From NCBI GenBank assembly GCA_007376385.1, contig VMGC01000003.1, forward strand, positions 1-64,000: a stretch of 64,000 nt of DNA, given 5' to 3'. Under the pieces are notes generated by a model. It was not told the origin of the DNA. It was given only the letters and a program-made list of their open reading frames with translations, and made no database searches. Within the stretch, counting starts at the first letter, position 1, and each line of letters opens with the position of its first letter. Positions 4,355 through 43,042 of the stretch are shown piece by piece. The translations under genes and the position numbers were made by a program. Source of the DNA: Parcubacteria group bacterium Gr01-1014_8 (lineage in GTDB: Bacteria > Patescibacteriota > Minisyncoccia > Phycocordibacterales > UBA2100).

Positions 4355-5285
4355 GGTACCCATTGCCTGCCCTTGAACCAATTTTGGCTTTCAGCGATGG
4401 GAATTGAACAGCGCAAGAATGAAAGGTTTCAACCCCCAAGGCAAGCCCTGGACTCTGGAAAACGAGCACCGCTCGTTTCCCAAATTCCGCGGCCTGTCTG
4501 CGTGCATCGCACAGGCCTAGTCCTTCAGAAACAAGCGACTGAAACGCAGTAGTATAGGCGTCTTTGTAACTGCGCCGAACGTCAGTGAGGGATGTATTTT
4601 TCGCGATCGCTTTTAAAATTGCTCCCCGCACTTGTCGCAAGGAACCCTCGAATCTTGATTGTTTTGAGTGATGTGTACTGCGTCGCGAGGGATTCGGATA
4701 CATGTGCTTGAGATGCGTCCCATAATCCATGAGCGCCGAATACCATATGCGCGGTTCCCGTCTACCAATTGCTGCTTCAACGATTGGAAACAGCTCTTTG
4801 TCCTCGACCTTCTTTTTTCTAGGAAAAAAATGGTGGATGAACACTGCGCGTATATTTGTTTCGATAAAAGTTTCAGGCATATTGAATGCGAACGCCCGAA
4901 CAGCTTTCGCCGTGTAATCCCCTATTCCCGGCAACGCACGCAGCTCTTCATAACTCTCGGGGATCTTTCCGGCGTGGTTCTGCACGATTGCACGCGCCGC
5001 GTCGTGCAAATACTTCGCTCGCCGATTATAGCCAAGTCCGCTCCACACGTTCAAGACATCTACGAGCGACGCTTGTGCCAGTTTTTTGACAGTCGGAAAT
5101 TTCTCCAGAAATTCTTTGTATTTTCCAATGACCCTATGAACCTGCGTCTGCTGAAGCATTATTTCGGAGATGAGTATCTTGTATGGATCTTCCGTTTTTC
5201 TCCAGGGCAGATCTTTCCGCCCATGCGCTCGAAAAAACTCCAGAACAGTTCGTCTAAACGAAGTGTATCTGGCGTCTGTTGTCAC
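4344..5285 (-). CDS. HhH-GPD DNA glycosylase, MutY/EndoIII-like, no obvious Fe-S cysteine cluster
   Basis: MLQQTQVHRVIGKYKEFLEKFPTV...LPGIGDYTA helix-hairpin-helix motif. The last 60 or so codons run through an intergenic-type repeat, so the 3' end is uncertain. Confidence 0.65.
   Translation of the reverse strand: MTTDARYTSFRRTVLEFFRAHGRKDLPWRKTEDPYKILISEIMLQQTQVHRVIGKYKEFLEKFPTVKKLAQASLVDVLNVWSGLGYNRRAKYLHDAARAIVQNHAGKIPESYEELRALPGIGDYTAKAVRAFAFNMPETFIETNIRAVFIHHFFPRKKKVEDKELFPIVEAAIGRREPRIWYSALMDYGTHLKHMYPNPSRRSTHHSKQSRFEGSLRQVRGAILKAIAKNTSLTDVRRSYKDAYTTAFQSLVSEGLGLCDARRQAAEFGKRAVLVFQSPGLALGVETFHSCAVQFPSLKAKIGSRAGNGYLKC
4411..4441. repeat. partial copy of the intergenic repeat family (shares gaaaggtttcaaccccc with the copy at 28939)
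   Basis: 17 nt exact match to 28939-28955. The adjacent 11-mer ggcaagccctg is the reverse complement of cagggcttgcc in the other copy. An imperfect hairpin lies nearby at 4440-4470. Confidence 0.4.
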
Positions 5286-38239: not shown

Positions 38240-38315
38240 TGGAGCCACCTCCCGGGCTTGAACCGGGGACCTACCCCTTACGAAGGGGTTGCTCTACCAA
38301 CTGAGCTAAGGTGGC
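38240..38315 (-). tRNA. tRNA-Thr(CGU)
   Basis: Cloverleaf GCCACCT...AGGTGGC, anticodon loop TTCGTAA, T-arm CCCGG-TTCAAGC-CCGGG, encoded CCA. Abuts the prfB start codon. Confidence 0.85.
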
Positions 38316-38708: not shown

Positions 38709-38782
38709 CAAAGCGGAGCACCTCCACCCTCAGTCACAGGATGAGTTTTAATACACCGTCTTTTCTTTCTCATGAGCCACCA

Positions 38783-38850
38783 TCCCATAAGGACCGCCCG
38801 CTCAACTGAGCTAAGGCGGCAACTTCGTTATCCTACGGCAGATTGGACTA
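38783..38850 (-). pseudogene. tRNA-Thr-derived fragment (internally deleted duplicate including upstream flank)
   Basis: caactgagctaaggcggc matches the tRNA-Thr 5' half (1 mismatch over 18 nt) and the downstream flank atcctacggca matches exactly. The reverse complement keeps ends GCCGCCTTAGCTCAGTTG...GGTGGCTCA but lacks the anticodon arm. Confidence 0.5.
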
Positions 38851-39995: not shown

Positions 39996-40280
39996 TGGAG
40001 CCGATGTCCGGGATTGAACCGGAGACCTCGTTCTTCGCTTACACCTCTCCTTTAGATATTCGAGAGGGCTAGACTGTATCTTCCCCCCACTTTTTTTGAA
40101 TTCTTAAAGTGGGGGACCCTTGTCAGTCGTTCGGGCGAATCAAGCAAAATGCTCGTCGCCACGGTCTGAACCTTTCGAGGCCTTTAACCGTAATTCGGGA
40201 TTCATTCAGACGTTACCGCCCGAATGGGCAGGGGTCTGCGACCCACCAAGAACGTGCTCTACCAACTGAGCTACATCGGC
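39996..40280 (-). tRNA. tRNA-Thr(GGU) interrupted by a group I intron between positions 36 and 37
   Basis: Exon 1 40245-40280 (GCCGATGTAGCTCAGTTGGTAGAGCACGTTCTTGGT), exon 2 39996-40035 (AAGAACGAGGTCTCCGGTTCAATCCCGGACATCGGCTCCA). Spliced product folds as a canonical 76 nt tRNA. Confidence 0.65.
40036..40244 (-). ncRNA. group I self-splicing intron (about 209 nt, no ORF) in the tRNA-Thr(GGU) anticodon loop
   Basis: 5' exon ends in U; intron ends in G (AAGCG). S-like element GAAGAUACAGUCUAG, R-like UUCAGACCGUGG able to form P7. P1 possible as GGU|GGG with CCUGCC giving U-G at the splice site. Long hairpin CCCCCACUUU...AAAGUGGGGG. Confidence 0.6.
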
Positions 40281-40666: not shown

Positions 40667-41908
40667 ATGGCTGTCGTAAATCCGTTCACGTCATATATTG
40701 AACGCCTCGCACGCGCTGCGCGCGCCTTGGGACTCTCGGAAGTCGAAAAAAAACGATTGTCAGAGCCAAACAACATTGTAGATACTCAGATAGAACTTAC
40801 GCGTGATAATGGAACAGTAGAAAGACTCCGCACCTACCGCGTACAATTCAATAATGCACGCGGGCCGTATAAAGGCGGGATCCGCTTTCACAAGGCGGCG
40901 GACTTAGACGAAGTAAAGGCGCTGGCTGCGGCCATGGCAATAAAGTGTGCGGTAGTTGATATTCCGATGGGAGGCGCTAAAGGAGGTGTCCAATTTGACC
41001 CAAAGCAATATTCAGAAGCGGAAATAGAGCGAGTCGCACGAGCATTCATCCGAGCTATGGGTGATGCAATCGGCGCCGACAAAGATATTCCCGCGCCAGA
41101 CGTATACACCAACAGCAACATAATGGGCATCATGCTGGATGAGTTTCAAAAAATGCACGGCCGAAATGAACCCGCCATGATAACGGGAAAGCCGCAGGGA
41201 CTCGGCGGAATAGTCGGTCGTGACACAGCTACAGCACAAGGCGGTGTGTATGTGCTCGATTACTTTGTGAGTGCTCTTGGTTTCAAGAAAAAAGGTCTGC
41301 GCGTCGCAATACAAGGGTTTGGGAATGCGGGGGCTACCGCTGCAAAGATCTTGAGCGGAGATGGACACAGTATCGTCGGCATTTCCGATAGCAGCGGAGC
41401 TCTCCTATTCGAAACTGGGCTGGACATAGACAAACTCCTTCTTGAAAAAAACAAAAGCGGCGAGTTAAAAGATACGCGTGCAAGAATCGCAACAAATCAG
41501 GAGCTATTAGAAACGGACTGTGATGTTTTGATACCTGCCGCACTCGACAATCAACTGACCGTTGAAAATGCGCCTCGGGTAAAAGCAAAAATAATACTGG
41601 AATTGGCCAACGGGCCAACTACTCCGGAGGCGGACGTGATTTTCGGGCAACGAGACATTACTGTCATCCCCGATGTACTAACTAACGCGGGGGGAGTTAC
41701 CGTATCCTATTTTGAATGGCTGCAAAATCGGGAAGGAAGCATCTGGTCGGAAGAAAAAGTACGCGAGCAATTGAAAGAAATAATGACAAAAGCATCCGGC
41801 GTTCTATGGAAAAAATCAAAGGAACTGAATGTCCCCCTCCGAGATGCGGCGTTCCTTCTTGGCGTTGAACGAATTGTGAGTGCTATGAGGACCCGGAGGG
41901 CTGTCTAA
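40667..41908 (+). CDS. gdhA: glutamate dehydrogenase (Glu/Leu/Phe/Val dehydrogenase family)
   Basis: Catalytic K motif IPMGGAKGGV, Rossmann GFGNAG. Confidence 0.9.
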   Translation: MAVVNPFTSYIERLARAARALGLSEVEKKRLSEPNNIVDTQIELTRDNGTVERLRTYRVQFNNARGPYKGGIRFHKAADLDEVKALAAAMAIKCAVVDIPMGGAKGGVQFDPKQYSEAEIERVARAFIRAMGDAIGADKDIPAPDVYTNSNIMGIMLDEFQKMHGRNEPAMITGKPQGLGGIVGRDTATAQGGVYVLDYFVSALGFKKKGLRVAIQGFGNAGATAAKILSGDGHSIVGISDSSGALLFETGLDIDKLLLEKNKSGELKDTRARIATNQELLETDCDVLIPAALDNQLTVENAPRVKAKIILELANGPTTPEADVIFGQRDITVIPDVLTNAGGVTVSYFEWLQNREGSIWSEEKVREQLKEIMTKASGVLWKKSKELNVPLRDAAFLLGVERIVSAMRTRRAV

Positions 41909-41909
41909 C

Positions 41910-41927
41910 GCGCGAGTGAAGGGACTT
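41910..41927. repeat. 18 nt exact duplicate of the tRNA-Asp 3' end (T-stem/acceptor), 140 nt from the gene
   Basis: gcgcgagtgaagggactt is identical at 41910-41927 and 42067-42084. Starts 2 nt after the gdhA stop. Confidence 0.5.
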
Positions 41928-42030
41928 TTTCTCCCCCGCTTTGCATTTGCAAAGCTCCTCCGAAACCGGCCGCCCTCGCTCGAACCAGTGGCGCTCGGGT
42001 CGGCTTCAAGTCCCGTTTTGCATAGCAAAA

Positions 42031-42059
42031 CAAAAGAGTCCCATAGTGGGACTCTTTTG
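42031..42059 (-). terminator. intrinsic terminator downstream of tRNA-Asp
   Basis: 12 bp perfect stem CAAAAGAGTCCCA/TGGGACTCTTTTG, followed on the minus strand by TTTTGCTATGCAAAA. Confidence 0.55.
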
Positions 42060-42067
42060 TCTCGCTG

Positions 42068-42141
42068 CGCGAGTGAAGGGACTTGAACCCTCGACCTTTC
42101 CCGTGACAGGGGAACGCTCTAACCAGCTGAGCTACACCCGC
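42068..42141 (-). tRNA. tRNA-Asp(GUC)
   Basis: Acceptor GCGGGTG/CACTCGC, anticodon loop CTGTCAC, T-arm GAGGG-TTCAAGT-CCCTT. Confidence 0.85.
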
Positions 42142-42586: not shown

Positions 42587-42630
42587 GTTTCGCCAGAATA
42601 GCATTTTTGACAGGCGACTCAACTATTTTG

Positions 42631-42782
42631 TTGCGGGGGCGGGCTTGGTCAGGAATAATTCGCTTGCCGACGCAAGCGAATTTTCACGACCCTGGCTCGC
42701 AGTCTCGCGCGCGCTCGACATCGCTCCGCCTTGCAAGTCCCGACGAGAAGTGCGAAGGCACTTCTCTCCCCCGCACAACCCG
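42631..42782 (-). ncRNA. about 150 nt structured element with tRNA-fMet-like acceptor termini but no T-arm (degenerate tRNA paralog or tRNA-like ncRNA)
   Basis: 3' end ttgttgcgggggcggg is identical to the 3' end and flank of the adjacent tRNA-fMet. 5' end UGCGGGGG pairs with the 3' end. Contains a 9 bp hairpin GAGAAGUGC/GCACUUCUC, an 11 bp hairpin AAUUCGCUUGC/GCAAGCGAAUU and a possible anticodon-like stem UCGGG/CCUGA. Confidence 0.35.
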
Positions 42783-42790
42783 ATCACAGC

Positions 42791-42817
42791 AAAAAATCCG
42801 CGCGAGGCGGATTTTTT
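42791..42817. terminator. bidirectional intrinsic terminator hairpin between tRNA-fMet and the tRNA-like element
   Basis: AAAAAATCCGCgcgaGCGGATTTTTT, perfect 11 bp stem flanked by A and T runs. Confidence 0.5.
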
Positions 42818-42827
42818 GCTGTACTTG

Positions 42828-42899
42828 TTGCGGGGGCGGGACTTGCACCCGCGACCTTCAGGTTATGAGCCTGACGAGCTACTACTGCTCCACCCCGCT
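42828..42899 (-). tRNA. initiator-like tRNA-Met(CAU) with non-canonical D and T loops
   Basis: AGCGGGGUGGAGC...CUCAUAA...CCCCGCAA resembles E. coli tRNA-fMet. A1:A72 are unpaired. D-loop AGTAGTA lacks G18G19 and T-loop is TGCAAGT instead of TTCRANY. Confidence 0.6.
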
Positions 42900-42906
42900 A
42901 CAGATG

Positions 42907-42942
42907 ATGATACCGCGATTGAGACTCCGAACGCAAGCGAAT
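42907..42942 (-). promoter_or_regulatory. putative sigma70-type promoter for tRNA-fMet
   Basis: Minus strand reads TTGCGT, 18 nt spacer, TATCAT, 7 nt, then tRNA +1. Confidence 0.3.
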
Positions 42943-43042
42943 TTTATTTGCGACGTAGAGCGAGTGAAATGCAAAAGAGCACTTTTGCATTTCCGAGCCG
43001 AGGAGCAAACACAGGTTCAATACCTCGCAGCTTTGCTGCGAG
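42942..43042 (+). repeat. intergenic repeat family copy C with downstream hairpin
   Basis: gcgagtgaaatgcaaaagagcacttttgcatttccgagccgaggagcaaacacaggttcaatacc, then CTCGCAGCtttgGCTGCGAG. Confidence 0.6.

Follow-up and report, generated by a model that had tools for sequence, protein, structure and literature searches.

A gene-less structured family at the 3′ ends of Patescibacteria tRNA genes, and a candidate insertion element beside tRNA-fMet

Folded single strands can act as recombination sites, as in the integron attC sites and the attP(+) hairpin of the CTX phage, and functional tRNA 3′ trailers exist, in the form of the 3′ETS sRNAs. CIMEs (cis-mobilisable elements) are elements that keep attL and attR, and have lost their integration genes (PMC5704250). 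There are also tRNA-like RNAs that are matured by the tRNA enzymes, such as mascRNA at the 3′ end of MALAT1 (PMC8457004) and the bacterial Y RNA YrlA (PMC4201824). Finally, the tRNA genes of Patescibacteria carry group I introns (PMC13011429).

Here, we analyze a feature located after a tRNA-fMet gene in a 64-kb window (by window we mean the whole stretch of DNA analyzed). The explanation that we favor, with moderate confidence, is that an insertion element of roughly 200 bp, gene-less and highly structured, sits at the tRNA-fMet 3′ end, and that the feature forms its body. How such an element would move, and what its RNA would do, is something that we infer. Full-text literature searches did not turn up any account of elements of this kind; apart from the group I intron paper, all that came back were general studies of CIMEs and of tRNA-like RNAs.

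Like the integrative elements that target tRNA genes, and like CIMEs, the proposed element would insert near the 3′ end of a tRNA gene, for which it would supply a replacement 3′ end. As with those elements, the displaced end makes a direct repeat (16–29 nt here), and we observe tandem accretion, presence/absence polymorphism, and integrase islands at the same tRNA-fMet site. Unlike them, it is only ~200 bp long with no parent in sight, and unlike the autonomous ones it has no integrase or recombinase of its own. Its interior, unlike that of CIMEs, is a covarying multi-helix fold common to more than 30 copies at four tRNA species. It also has an internal antisense to the att/tRNA segment, whereas a classical attP needs none. 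With MITEs, it has in common being small, non-coding, complementary end to end (by the helix P0, see below), stably folded, and in need of a function provided in trans. Unlike MITEs, only a single intact copy is present in the 64 kb, co-resident copies belong to different subtypes instead of being near-identical, the duplication is variable (16–29 nt) and equal to the tRNA end instead of a short fixed target-site duplication, and the element ends are target-derived.

The element and its fold in the window

The tRNA-fMet gene, the proposed target, lies at 42827–42899 on the minus strand (ARAGORN; Rfam RF00005, 60.8 bits). It has anticodon CAT, an A1/A72 mismatch and an unusual T-loop UGCAAGU, and its CCA is not encoded. 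From about C56 onward, the 3′ part of this tRNA is the proximal copy of a repeat. A sequence repeat search finds a 16-nt exact direct repeat, TTGTTGCGGGGGCGGG on the plus strand, that occurs exactly twice in the window, at 42628–42643 and at 42825–42840; shuffled sequences are expected to give 0.53 matches even when up to 3 mismatches are allowed. The copy at 42825–42840 reads CCCGCCCCCGCAACAA on the minus strand, and it covers the acceptor 3′ strand of the tRNA and 3 nucleotides of its flank. The original prediction, made from the sequence of the window, was thus right that the last 16 nt of the feature copy the acceptor and flank of the adjacent tRNA, and the element that it delimited is real, except that the repeat starts 3 nt outside the start that it gave.

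Between the tRNA and the element body there is a terminator-like hairpin that we call X (42786–42822, minus strand; inverted repeat I3), a 16-bp perfect inverted repeat preceded by an A-tract and followed by a U-tract, with U-tracts on both strands. Relatives have analogous hairpins at the same position, and in one of them (L118; we refer to contigs and loci by L numbers) the X segment belongs to the indel described below. In L103, the window's hairpin sits directly 3′ of tRNA-fMet and the element is absent; possible explanations are that X is native to that locus, or that an element there was lost by deletion. As X is a strong terminator-like hairpin ahead of the element, read-through from the tRNA would be limited in the window. 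A consensus scan found no promoter for the element.

The element body begins ~47 nt downstream of the tRNA-fMet gene. R1, a covariance model built in this analysis, matches it end to end at 42626–42780 on the minus strand (model positions 1–158; 158 bits, E = 3.8e-37). The minus strand folds with −77.4 kcal/mol (z = −4.3), and 0/200 shuffles fold as well. The predicted structure is a three-way junction closed by a mimic of the acceptor/T-stem, with hairpin domains P1 to P3.

The closing helix, P0, has UUGUGCGGGGG as its 5′ strand (42768–42778, minus strand), and in the minimum-free-energy fold this strand (42778–42768) pairs with CCCCCGCAACAA (42639–42628), so the 5′ end does close the molecule with the 3′ end as had been proposed. 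This 5′ strand is complementary to tRNA-fMet over the 3′ strand of the acceptor, the discriminator and the trailer, and members of the family beside other tRNAs retain P0 with different sequences. Within P0, we observe an acceptor-like 7-bp stem, GCGGGGG (42774–42768) with CCCCCGC (42639–42633), followed by an A in the position of the discriminator; the 3′ strand of this stem is identical to that of tRNA-fMet. A second antisense segment, which we call anti-T (CGGGACUUGCA, 42732–42742, minus strand; inverted repeat I9), is the 5′ strand of a long-range helix, PL. Its 11 nt perfectly complement UGCAAGUCCCG, the T-loop and T-stem 3′ strand of the upstream tRNA. The 3′ strands of both PL and P0 are provided by the distal copy of the tRNA 3′ end (42628–42647, minus strand), which the repeat search identifies as CAAG-CCCGCCCCCGCAACAA. 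It matches tRNA positions ~56–76 plus 3 nt with one U missing, that is, a 20-nt repeat with one gap, and it probably represents the original end of the tRNA after displacement. The tRNA-like termini of the feature then consist of a piece duplicated from the upstream tRNA, which runs from the T-loop to a few nucleotides past the discriminator, together with 5′ antisense segments; jointly they imitate an acceptor/T-stem stack.

The interior domains all lie on the minus strand. P1 (42745–42766) is a perfect 9-bp hairpin with loop CUUC, evident both in the sequence and in the comparative structure. Its branch point corresponds to the acceptor/T-stem junction, and in the family, both sides of its modelled pairs vary (6/6). 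The comparative structure gives P2 (42694–42730) as short helices that stack, GGC/GCC and GCG/UGC, and a hairpin, with invariant unpaired nucleotides in the motifs GGAGCG and GCGAG. It gives P3 (42647–42691) as a basal helix GGUC/GACC, an extension, and a perfect 11-bp hairpin (42657–42682) with loop region GCGUCGGC; in A2, 15/15 of the P3 pairs change on both sides. The hairpins of P1 and P3 are the two perfect ones, of 9 and 11 bp, noticed originally. An anticodon-stem-like pair UCGGG/CCUGA noticed with them does not hold: in the comparative structure, the partner of CGGG is a CCCG in the 3′ copy, and the base of P3 is formed by pairing between CCUGACC and GGGUCGUG.

Could the feature be instead a degenerate tandem duplicate of tRNA-fMet (a pseudogene), or the remnant of an intron-containing paralogue? 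Its 5′ part, UGCGGGGGAGAG...CUCGUCGGG, does resemble the acceptor strand, the D-arm edges and a stem strand of tRNA-fMet, and its 3′ end is identical to the tRNA; moreover, introns are common in the tRNAs of the phylum (PMC13011429), with one in the window at 40036–40244. The comparative data contradict both versions, and we regard them as highly improbable. The anticodon loop, the T-loop and the T-stem 5′ strand are all absent, in agreement with the original observation that T-arm and anticodon loop are missing: no cloverleaf tRNA, T arm or anticodon loop is found in 42626–42780 by ARAGORN, with or without intron search, or by Rfam, at gathering thresholds or at E ≤ 10. What lies inside is a conserved multi-helix scaffold, homologous to elements that follow tRNA-Asp, tRNA-Met and tRNA-Thr, and with compensatory changes in 32/38 pairs. 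Genuine intron-bearing tRNA-fMet genes among the relatives carry their insert in the anticodon loop with both exons intact, and in L123 one such gene and an element are side by side. The group I signal (RF00028) is absent from the element.

The element has similarities to the group I introns of Patescibacteria in being structured, non-coding, lineage-enriched, tRNA-associated and free of homing endonuclease genes. Unlike them, it follows a complete tRNA instead of interrupting an anticodon loop, lacks a group I core, and is flanked by a target duplication. The window does have a group I-type intron-split tRNA 2.4 kb from the element, with a weak RF00028 signal at 40045–40114.

Relatives of the element and covariation

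Relatives were collected in one metagenome scan seeded with a tRNA-fMet 24-mer, which resulted in 75 loci sharing the tRNA-fMet type, most of them with the same type as the window. The window element belongs, as an intact copy, to an uncatalogued family of gene-less structured elements at tRNA gene 3′ ends in Patescibacteria (CPR), whose members are non-coding, ~110–200 nt long, and found in 30+ related metagenome contigs. The covariance search in relatives that had been suggested reports 40 R1 matches with E < 1e-3 in the 75 metagenome loci, almost all of them 8–50 nt downstream of a same-strand tRNA, be it fMet, elongator Met, Asp or Thr-CGU. Homologous positions do not hold an ordinary intact tRNA, the outcome originally named as refuting; they carry the same structured element or nothing. 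Numerous copies are truncated (L134, L140 and L092 are examples).

A structure-blind MAFFT alignment of the family has 91.3% of its helix cells paired, versus 33–45% when the partners are slid. It shows changes on both sides in 32/38 pairs, and a covariation score of 0.513 versus 0.06–0.12. In a 45-sequence alignment to the model, 93% of the cells are paired, and 37/38 pairs change on both sides. The covariation support for a candidate structured RNA is strong. Open reading frames across the element are short, and the compensatory substitutions argue against coding.

Covariation alone fits an RNA or a same-strand folded single-stranded DNA. As for the strand, the non-Watson-Crick helix cells read on the tRNA-sense strand include 46 G.U versus 15 A.C, and this excess favors the tRNA-sense strand. 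In the Thr- and Met-linked members there is no terminator between tRNA and element, so there the element is necessarily co-transcribed with the tRNA. These results bear on whether the feature could be a small RNA of the opposite (plus) strand, with a 5′ end GUUGCGGGGGCGGG antisense to the tRNA-fMet 3′ end, that converges with the tRNA on a shared bidirectional terminator. The plus strand folds well (−74.5 kcal/mol, z = −5.2), and the hairpin at 42786–42822 has U-tracts on both strands as such a terminator would. However, the G.U excess is on the other strand, the terminator-less members are contiguous with the tRNA transcript, and R1 scores ~140 bits lower on the reverse strand, a difference due in part to sequence content. 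A plus-strand RNA has in our view very little chance of being the explanation.

A more serious contender, unlikely as we think it is, is a host gene for a small RNA. The RNA in question would come from a tRNA trailer, with a terminal helix shaped like the neighbour's acceptor/T-stem so that RNase P, RNase Z and the CCA-adding enzyme could mature it, and with a scaffold that binds a protein or ligand; presence and absence would reflect gene loss, and the copies at different tRNAs would be old paralogues. The strong covariation and invariant junction nucleotides agree with it, as do the fixed position after a same-strand tRNA, the co-transcription of Thr- and Met-linked members, the housekeeping context without mobile genes, and the excess of G.U over A.C on the tRNA-sense strand. 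Like mascRNA, YrlA and the functional trailers, the element is a predicted non-tRNA transcript from a tRNA transcription unit, with an acceptor/T-stem-like stack near a tRNA-type processing signal. Unlike mascRNA and YrlA, it has no mimic of a T-loop or D-loop, and it copies a specific neighbour tRNA with its trailer, not a generic shape. The Rfam models for YrlA and tRNA do not match the element. Of the three options originally offered for the feature, a tRNA-like regulatory RNA is the only one to survive, in a different sense than was meant.

The insertion reading is supported by how the ends behave. In the closing helix, a copy of the 3′ half of the tRNA that lies upstream, whatever its type, is always paired with an antisense to that half. 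The antisense varies accordingly: CGGGACUUGCA for fMet, CGAGAUUUGAA for Thr, GGGACUCGAA for Asp, and GCGGAAUCGAA for Met. The tRNA-end duplications are 16–29 nt long (16 exact in the window), and all begin at about C56. The scaffold subtype does not follow the tRNA type, and scaffold subtypes are common to different tRNA types: the Thr-linked L127 is 86% identical to the fMet-linked L130, and the antisense of L130, CGAGAC, is intermediate between the Thr and fMet types. Distal copies are decaying, by a 1-nt deletion in the window, by a C>U in L118, and heavily in L123, while the antisense remains perfectly complementary to the functional tRNA. The same antisense/copy logic is found with a second, unrelated type of scaffold (L149, L090, L105). 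The mismatch of subtype and tRNA type, the pattern of decay and the unrelated scaffold count against a host gene, as do nested or tandem partial modules and the many truncated copies.

Searches outside this collection were negative. No Rfam 15 family matches over the element body; at E ≤ 10, the window reports only weak sub-threshold FsrA and isrK matches that also span the terminator hairpin, and seven other members report nothing at E ≤ 1. In IMG/VR, an exact scan for the tRNA-fMet 3′ end had 0 hits, and three scaffold patterns had 0, 11 and 32 hits, none confirmed by the model. A blastn comparison to INPHARED phages and PLSDB plasmids found no element match. The window has no second copy of the element, by blastn-short or by R1 with filters off; E2, an analogous element after tRNA-Asp, scores only 5.6 bits with R1. 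The closest GTDB genome, a Saccharibacteria MAG (L007; glutamate dehydrogenase 71% identical), is syntenic, its contig ends before tRNA-fMet, and its tRNA-Asp is without an element.

Occupied and empty sites

Three comparisons with orthologous flanks oppose an occupied site to an empty one: L118 versus L131/L154, L123 versus L110/L150, and L149 versus L090/L105. In all three, the indel is bounded by a 17–29-nt duplication of the tRNA 3′ end, a signature that site-specific integration in the T-loop leaves behind, with the reservation that gain and precise loss by recombination between repeats yield the same alleles. In relatives, the native trailer and terminator sit after the distal copy. The three comparisons are between related contigs; for the window's own species, the other assembly available, an independent ENA contig (L004/L006), is occupied (L004) by a 100% identical element sequence. 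Extra 3′ modules in L123, L155 and L108 look like serial insertions at a regenerated site, and co-resident copies belong to different subtypes. Indels bounded exactly by the duplicated tRNA segment argue against a host RNA gene.

The same site also receives large islands. L152 has a 7.4-kb island with a tyrosine integrase, Shedu, a reverse transcriptase and a 24-nt repeat, and the same integrase family is present in L099, L101 and L115 with an attP-like site. L113 has a 9.5-kb serine-recombinase island. By tblastn, the serine recombinase of L113 seemed similar to the element region of L123, a resemblance that failed on inspection. In the window, the neighbourhood consists of housekeeping genes, with mobile genes absent. 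We found no recombinase, integrase or reverse-transcriptase homologues in the 64 kb. The adjacent 229-aa protein, considered as a recombinase, is membrane-protein-like with no match in Pfam, NCBIfam or PDB, and it is tied to tRNA-fMet by synteny only.

Such islands suggest another origin: the element could be a scar, the attR-side arm left after the genes of a large island were deleted, similar to a cis-mobilisable element, with a structure that is incidental or was a regulatory RNA of the parent. A direct repeat of the tRNA 3′ end flanking a gene-less segment fits the definition of a CIME (PMC5704250), and relatives have gene-carrying islands integrated at this tRNA. But the islands in L152, L113/L104, L155 and L134 have their own junctions, with the element, if present, beyond them and with its own terminator; in no locus is the scaffold joined to island genes. 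Nor would random decay be expected to leave more than 30 independent ~150-nt remnants with structure-preserving substitutions. We consider a scar quite unlikely. In the loci examined, we saw neither a free form of the element nor a parental one, and no copy at the far end of a gene-carrying element.

Proposed mechanism and implications

Under the insertion explanation that we favor, the unit that enters would be a tRNA 3′ part, its own terminator (42786–42822), the antisense/P1 segment, and the scaffold, all together. Entry would be by site-specific recombination within the segment from the T-loop to the 3′ end, as in the integrative elements that target tRNAs, and the original tRNA end would be displaced to 42628–42647, where it has already lost one base. 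Because the element encodes nothing, the recombinase would have to act in trans; in related contigs, islands with tyrosine and serine recombinases occupy the same tRNA-fMet site. The junction of an excised circle would be the scaffold end ...UGACC joined to AAGUCCCG...X. It counts against the insertion reading that a 190-bp double-stranded circle is an awkward substrate for an integrase.

The folded strand would be the tRNA-sense one, and its simplest origin would be co-transcription with the tRNA, or read-through RNA from it. The antisense segments would pair with the copy of the tRNA 3′ half into a bipartite helix (7 + 9 bp) similar to an acceptor/T-stem, closing the three-way junction. Such a helix would sequester the duplicated tRNA end, preventing mispairing with the essential tRNA, and it would give RNase P, RNase Z and the CCA-adding enzyme processing sites of the tRNA type. 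Two alternative pairings are possible: in fold A, the tRNA coexists with the closed element, and in fold B, the tRNA 3′ half is paired to the antisense.

A bolder reading, which we put forward tentatively and judge rather unlikely, is that of a new class of gene-less mobile element whose attachment site would be presented by a single strand, of RNA or of DNA, in folded form. The helix between antisense and copy would reproduce the end of the tRNA gene as a duplex, and the conserved scaffold would be an active cofactor, either a structure that recruits the recombinase or a ribozyme. The free form would be a ~190-nt dumbbell of copy, terminator hairpin, antisense/P1 and scaffold, and a changed helix would retarget the element to another tRNA. 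This would fit the unrelated scaffolds with the same end logic, the antisense tracking the functional tRNA half, and the presence of one subtype at different tRNAs. As in attC and the CTX attP(+), inverted copies of a core (42768–42778 and 42732–42742) pair with the copy at 42628–42647 or with the tRNA 3′ half in a mimic of the duplex target, and a single-strand insertion of that type would give the observed order of tRNA end, X, antisense, scaffold and displaced tRNA end. Unlike those sites, we see no link to IntI or XerCD, no R/L boxes and no dif-like sites; the spacer is conserved in sequence and structure, and the target is a tRNA gene.

Some consequences are practical. The elements resemble pseudo-tRNAs, and their inverted and direct repeats of the tRNA end break or mis-join assemblies, as at the tRNA-fMet of the window, whose junction could be chimeric. 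The annotation of tRNAs in CPR genomes should mask or model them. With a fold of 150 nt and a helix rewritten for each target tRNA, the element is a good system in which to study how a gene-less element homes to tRNA genes. The finding bears on the tolerance of tiny genomes to selfish DNA, on tRNA genes as integration hot spots, and on folded single strands as recombination substrates outside integrons and CTX-type phages. If the insertion explanation is true, Patescibacteria carry a widespread and unannotated family of structured non-coding elements that colonises the 3′ ends of essential tRNA genes.

An element with tRNA-fMet-like ends and its surroundings

The structured element at 42626-42780 (minus strand) lies downstream of its proposed target gene, tRNA-fMet (42827-42899, minus strand), with a 16-bp terminator-like hairpin, X (42786-42822, minus strand), between the two; all 6 tRNA genes that a tRNA scan finds in the window are on this strand. 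The 16-mer TTGTTGCGGGGGCGGG occurs exactly twice in the window: at 42628-42643, and at 42825-42840, where it is the 3′ acceptor strand of tRNA-fMet plus flank. Read on the minus strand, the element starts with UUGUGCGGGGG and ends with CCCCCGCAACAA, which pair with each other. Inside, a 9-bp hairpin (42745-42766) and an 11-bp hairpin (42657-42682) are both perfect, and 11 nt at 42732-42742 repeat the tRNA-fMet T-loop and T-stem 3′ strand perfectly in inverted orientation. The folding energy is -77.4 kcal/mol (z = -4.3). The repeat, the pairing ends and the two hairpins confirm the original prediction of a structured element with tRNA-fMet-like ends. The predicted absence of a T-arm agrees with tRNA and Rfam scans, which detect neither a tRNA nor any other Rfam family within the element, but the proposed UCGGG/CCUGA pairing does not hold, as comparative data assign both strands other partners. 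The element is 100% identical in an independent ENA contig of the same species, and that it is a real feature is strongly supported.

The neighboring genes are housekeeping genes (ligA, gatC, gatA, glutamate dehydrogenase, prfB), together with a 229-aa membrane protein and a CBU_0592-family protein, and no recombinase is present in the 64-kb window. The closest genome match is an uncultured Saccharibacteria MAG, with partly conserved gene order and a glutamate dehydrogenase 71% identical, which places the organism in the Patescibacteria (CPR). A 15-nt exact repeat, ACGCAAGCGAAUUUU (plus strand), links 42670-42684, the 5′ strand of the element's P3 hairpin, with 42931-42945, which is 32 nt upstream of tRNA-fMet and overlaps a -35-like TTGCGT; the match could be what is left of a further element copy, or a coincidence (E~0.01).

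The tRNA-fMet gene (42856-42899 and flanks; 4690-5175 in contig L001 and 7160-7385 in L004) is also a recombination or assembly junction. One contig of ENA sample ERZ27284378 runs from the gatA side of the window and the tRNA 5′ part into a canonical T arm, ACAGGUUCAAAUCCUGU, with CCA encoded and 16S rRNA next; another runs from a different upstream region and tRNA 5′ part, CGCGGGGUAGAGCAGUGGCAGCUC, into the T arm of the window and the element. The exchange point falls inside 27 nt that both contigs have in common. Either two fMet genes have truly undergone an inversion, or one of the assemblies contains a chimeric join; the version in the window is the clade-typical tRNA. A short contig from a sister sample (L003, 960-1165) matches the window from the 229-aa gene to 42983, and then continues with ~106 unique nt and window 4517-4615, which is either another structural variant or an assembly ambiguity near the tRNA cluster.

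Several tRNA genes here are unusual. Position 55 of tRNAs is nearly universally U (pseudouridine). The T-loop of the lineage's initiator tRNA (42841-42847 in the window, and the 75 related loci L087-L161) reads UGCAAGU, with G at position 55; the tRNA further shows an A1/A72 mismatch, its CCA is not encoded, and in about 17 of the 75 related genes the anticodon loop contains an intron-like insert. Standard scans miss a split gene at 39996-40280 (minus strand), whose exons, 40280-40245 and 40035-39996, give a canonical tRNA-Thr(GGU) with encoded CCA. Its 209-nt intron (40244-40036) follows U36 and ends in G, and the gene has a weak Rfam group I match (40045-40114); the syntenic counterpart in the Saccharibacteria MAG (L007) is without the intron. 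ARAGORN -i reports Arg(gcg) i(35,209), and the same disagreement at 36/37, ARAGORN Arg(GCG) vs. tFind Thr(GGU), has been tabulated for Patescibacteria introns (PMC13011429). At 38760-38830 (minus strand) there is a miniature pseudo-tRNA-Thr, GCCGCCUUAGCUCAGUUGAGCGGGCGGUCCUUAUGGGAUGGUGGCUCA, which keeps the tRNA-Thr 5′ acceptor strand, the D-arm start and a 3′ acceptor strand to match, but has lost most of the body; 14 nt are identical to tRNA-Thr(CGU) at 38298-38311.

A family with a conserved fold

Relatives were collected by an exact scan of metagenome contigs with the tRNA-fMet T-arm/acceptor 24-mer, resulting in 75 loci, a set biased by this mode of collection. In 6 of the 75, a second copy of the tRNA 3′ end lies 164-193 nt downstream, and alignment reveals a homologous element there. 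Motif and nhmmer searches raised the membership to about 30. From a MAFFT alignment of 19 members, RNAalifold produced a consensus of 38 pairs, with compensatory changes in 32 of them, and the same alignment was the source of the covariance model R1. The window copy belongs to this family (158 bits, E = 3.8e-37), and R1 has 40 matches at E < 1e-3.

The MAFFT alignment, which is blind to structure, has 91.3% of cells paired, vs. 33-45% when the partners are slid, and a covariation score of 0.513 vs. 0.06-0.12; 0 of 500 shuffles reached the observed values. In the model-based alignment of 45 matches, 93% are paired and 37 of the 38 pairs show double changes. The family has a conserved fold, in which a hairpin, P1, sits at the junction and a long-range helix, PL, resembling an extended T-stem, encloses two hairpin domains: P2, whose GGAGCG and GCGAG motifs include invariant unpaired nucleotides, and P3. 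The acceptor-like helix P0 is outside R1 and is kept with differing sequences in many members. On the tRNA-sense strand, G.U pairs (46) exceed A.C pairs (15); the covariation itself fits RNA and folded single-stranded DNA alike, and cannot tell them apart.

Ends derived from the upstream tRNA

Nearly all matches are 8-50 nt downstream of a same-strand tRNA, which is fMet, elongator Met, Asp or Thr-CGU. The 3′ end of the element repeats 16-29 nt of that tRNA, starting near C56 of the T-loop and stopping a few nt past the discriminator, and its 5′ segments are antisense to this sequence, reading CGGGACUUGCA next to fMet, CGAGAUUUGAA next to Thr, GGGACUCGAA next to Asp and GCGGAAUCGAA next to Met. 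The antisense reaches T-loop positions 54-55, outside the duplicated segment (CA vs. UG in fMet, AA vs. UU elsewhere), and it is still perfect where the distal copy has decayed (one U missing in the window, C>U in L118, heavily in L123). Thus, the antisense tracks the functional tRNA end and not the distal copy. The minimum free energy fold of the whole tRNA-hairpin-element transcript (-149.8 kcal/mol) agrees: in it the antisense pairs with the 3′ half of the tRNA, and the distal copy with the tRNA 5′ strand, a predicted state that co-transcriptional folding may well avoid.

The element behaves as a discrete unit. In three comparisons of close contigs (L118 vs. L131/L154, L123 vs. L110/L150, L149 vs. 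L090/L105), with flanks about 87-90% identical, it is present in one and absent from the others, and the limits of the indel are the duplicated tRNA segment; the direction, gain or loss, is ambiguous. The distal copy is followed by the native trailer and terminator, and the proximal copy by a different, element-linked terminator hairpin. Site-specific integration into a tRNA gene, at the T-loop/3′ end, leaves this arrangement. Scaffold subtype does not track tRNA type: the scaffold of a Thr-linked element (L127) is 86% identical to that of an fMet-linked one (L130), in which the antisense stands between the Thr and fMet versions, and Met and Asp likewise have cross-type neighbors. Additional partial 3′ modules are present at several loci, and L103 has hairpin X of the window and no element. 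No free or parental form was seen among the related metagenome loci, and phage, plasmid and IMG/VR collections gave no match to the family.

Proposed insertions at tRNA ends and the nature of the element

Other elements share these sites. Behind some tRNA-fMet genes lies a second, unrelated scaffold (type 2) whose ends have the same antisense/copy design (L149 3330-3509, L090 5658-5771, L117 280-393, L105 1439-1553); its start, GGGGGCGGGACUUGG, is antisense to the 3′ half of the tRNA, its end is CCCCCGCAACA, and in L149 it stands in tandem behind a type-1 element. In relatives, the same tRNA-fMet 3′ end is also the integration site of gene-carrying islands: 7.4 kb in L152 (97-7640), with a tyrosine integrase, Shedu (SduA), a reverse transcriptase and a 24-nt flanking repeat, and 9.5 kb in L113 (2520-12030), with a large serine recombinase, Prim-Pol primase and Schlafen-like ATPase, the serine-recombinase island occurring in L113/L104. 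Relatives of the L152 integrase adjoin an attP-like copy, as at L099 620-1856. In island loci the element lies on the far side of the island junctions and therefore does not belong to the islands.

Downstream of tRNA-Asp (42067-42141), E2 (41905-42025, minus strand) has the same architecture: a terminator hairpin (42024-42066), the tRNA-Asp T-loop/T-stem in inverted form (42002-42014 vs. 42078-42090), and, ~70 nt further, 18 nt that duplicate the tRNA-Asp 3′ end exactly (41910-41927 = 42067-42084), with GCGGGGGAGAAAA ahead of them. E2 scores only 5.6 bits with R1 and has no homolog outside the same species; it is a relative that has decayed or else a scaffold of another type. In L105 (1053-975), a partial degenerate second tRNA-Met, from anticodon arm to 3′ end, lies between the elongator tRNA-Met and the trailing element, which suggests repeated duplication at the site.

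Among the options originally raised, a tRNA-like RNA comes nearest to the truth; we reject a degenerate tRNA-fMet duplicate, and also an intron remnant, as the element is not a group I intron of the type known in the phylum (PMC13011429). Our preferred reading is a structured element without genes that has integrated at the 3′ end of a tRNA, a variant of the known tRNA-targeting kind. The closest systems are tRNA-targeting integrative elements and gene-less CIMEs (as defined in PMC5704250), which have att duplication and accretion in common with it, but it differs in size, conserved structure and internal antisense to the target. A literature search found no published description of such elements. 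We think it unlikely that this is a structure-guided mobile element of a new type. Integron attC and CTX-phage attP are folded single-strand sites, and by analogy the antisense/copy pair may resemble them; as RNA, the element resembles the tRNA-like processing mimics mascRNA and YrlA, yet matches no Rfam model.

The unit of tRNA 3′ part, hairpin X, antisense/P1 and scaffold would have entered by recombination within the tRNA 3′ segment, with a recombinase probably supplied in trans, and the 16 nt at 42628-42643 would be the displaced original tRNA end. Hairpin X, ahead of the element, should lower transcription in the window. The conserved fold would act in RNA co-transcribed with the tRNA, where it may sequester the duplicated tRNA end and offer tRNA-type processing sites.
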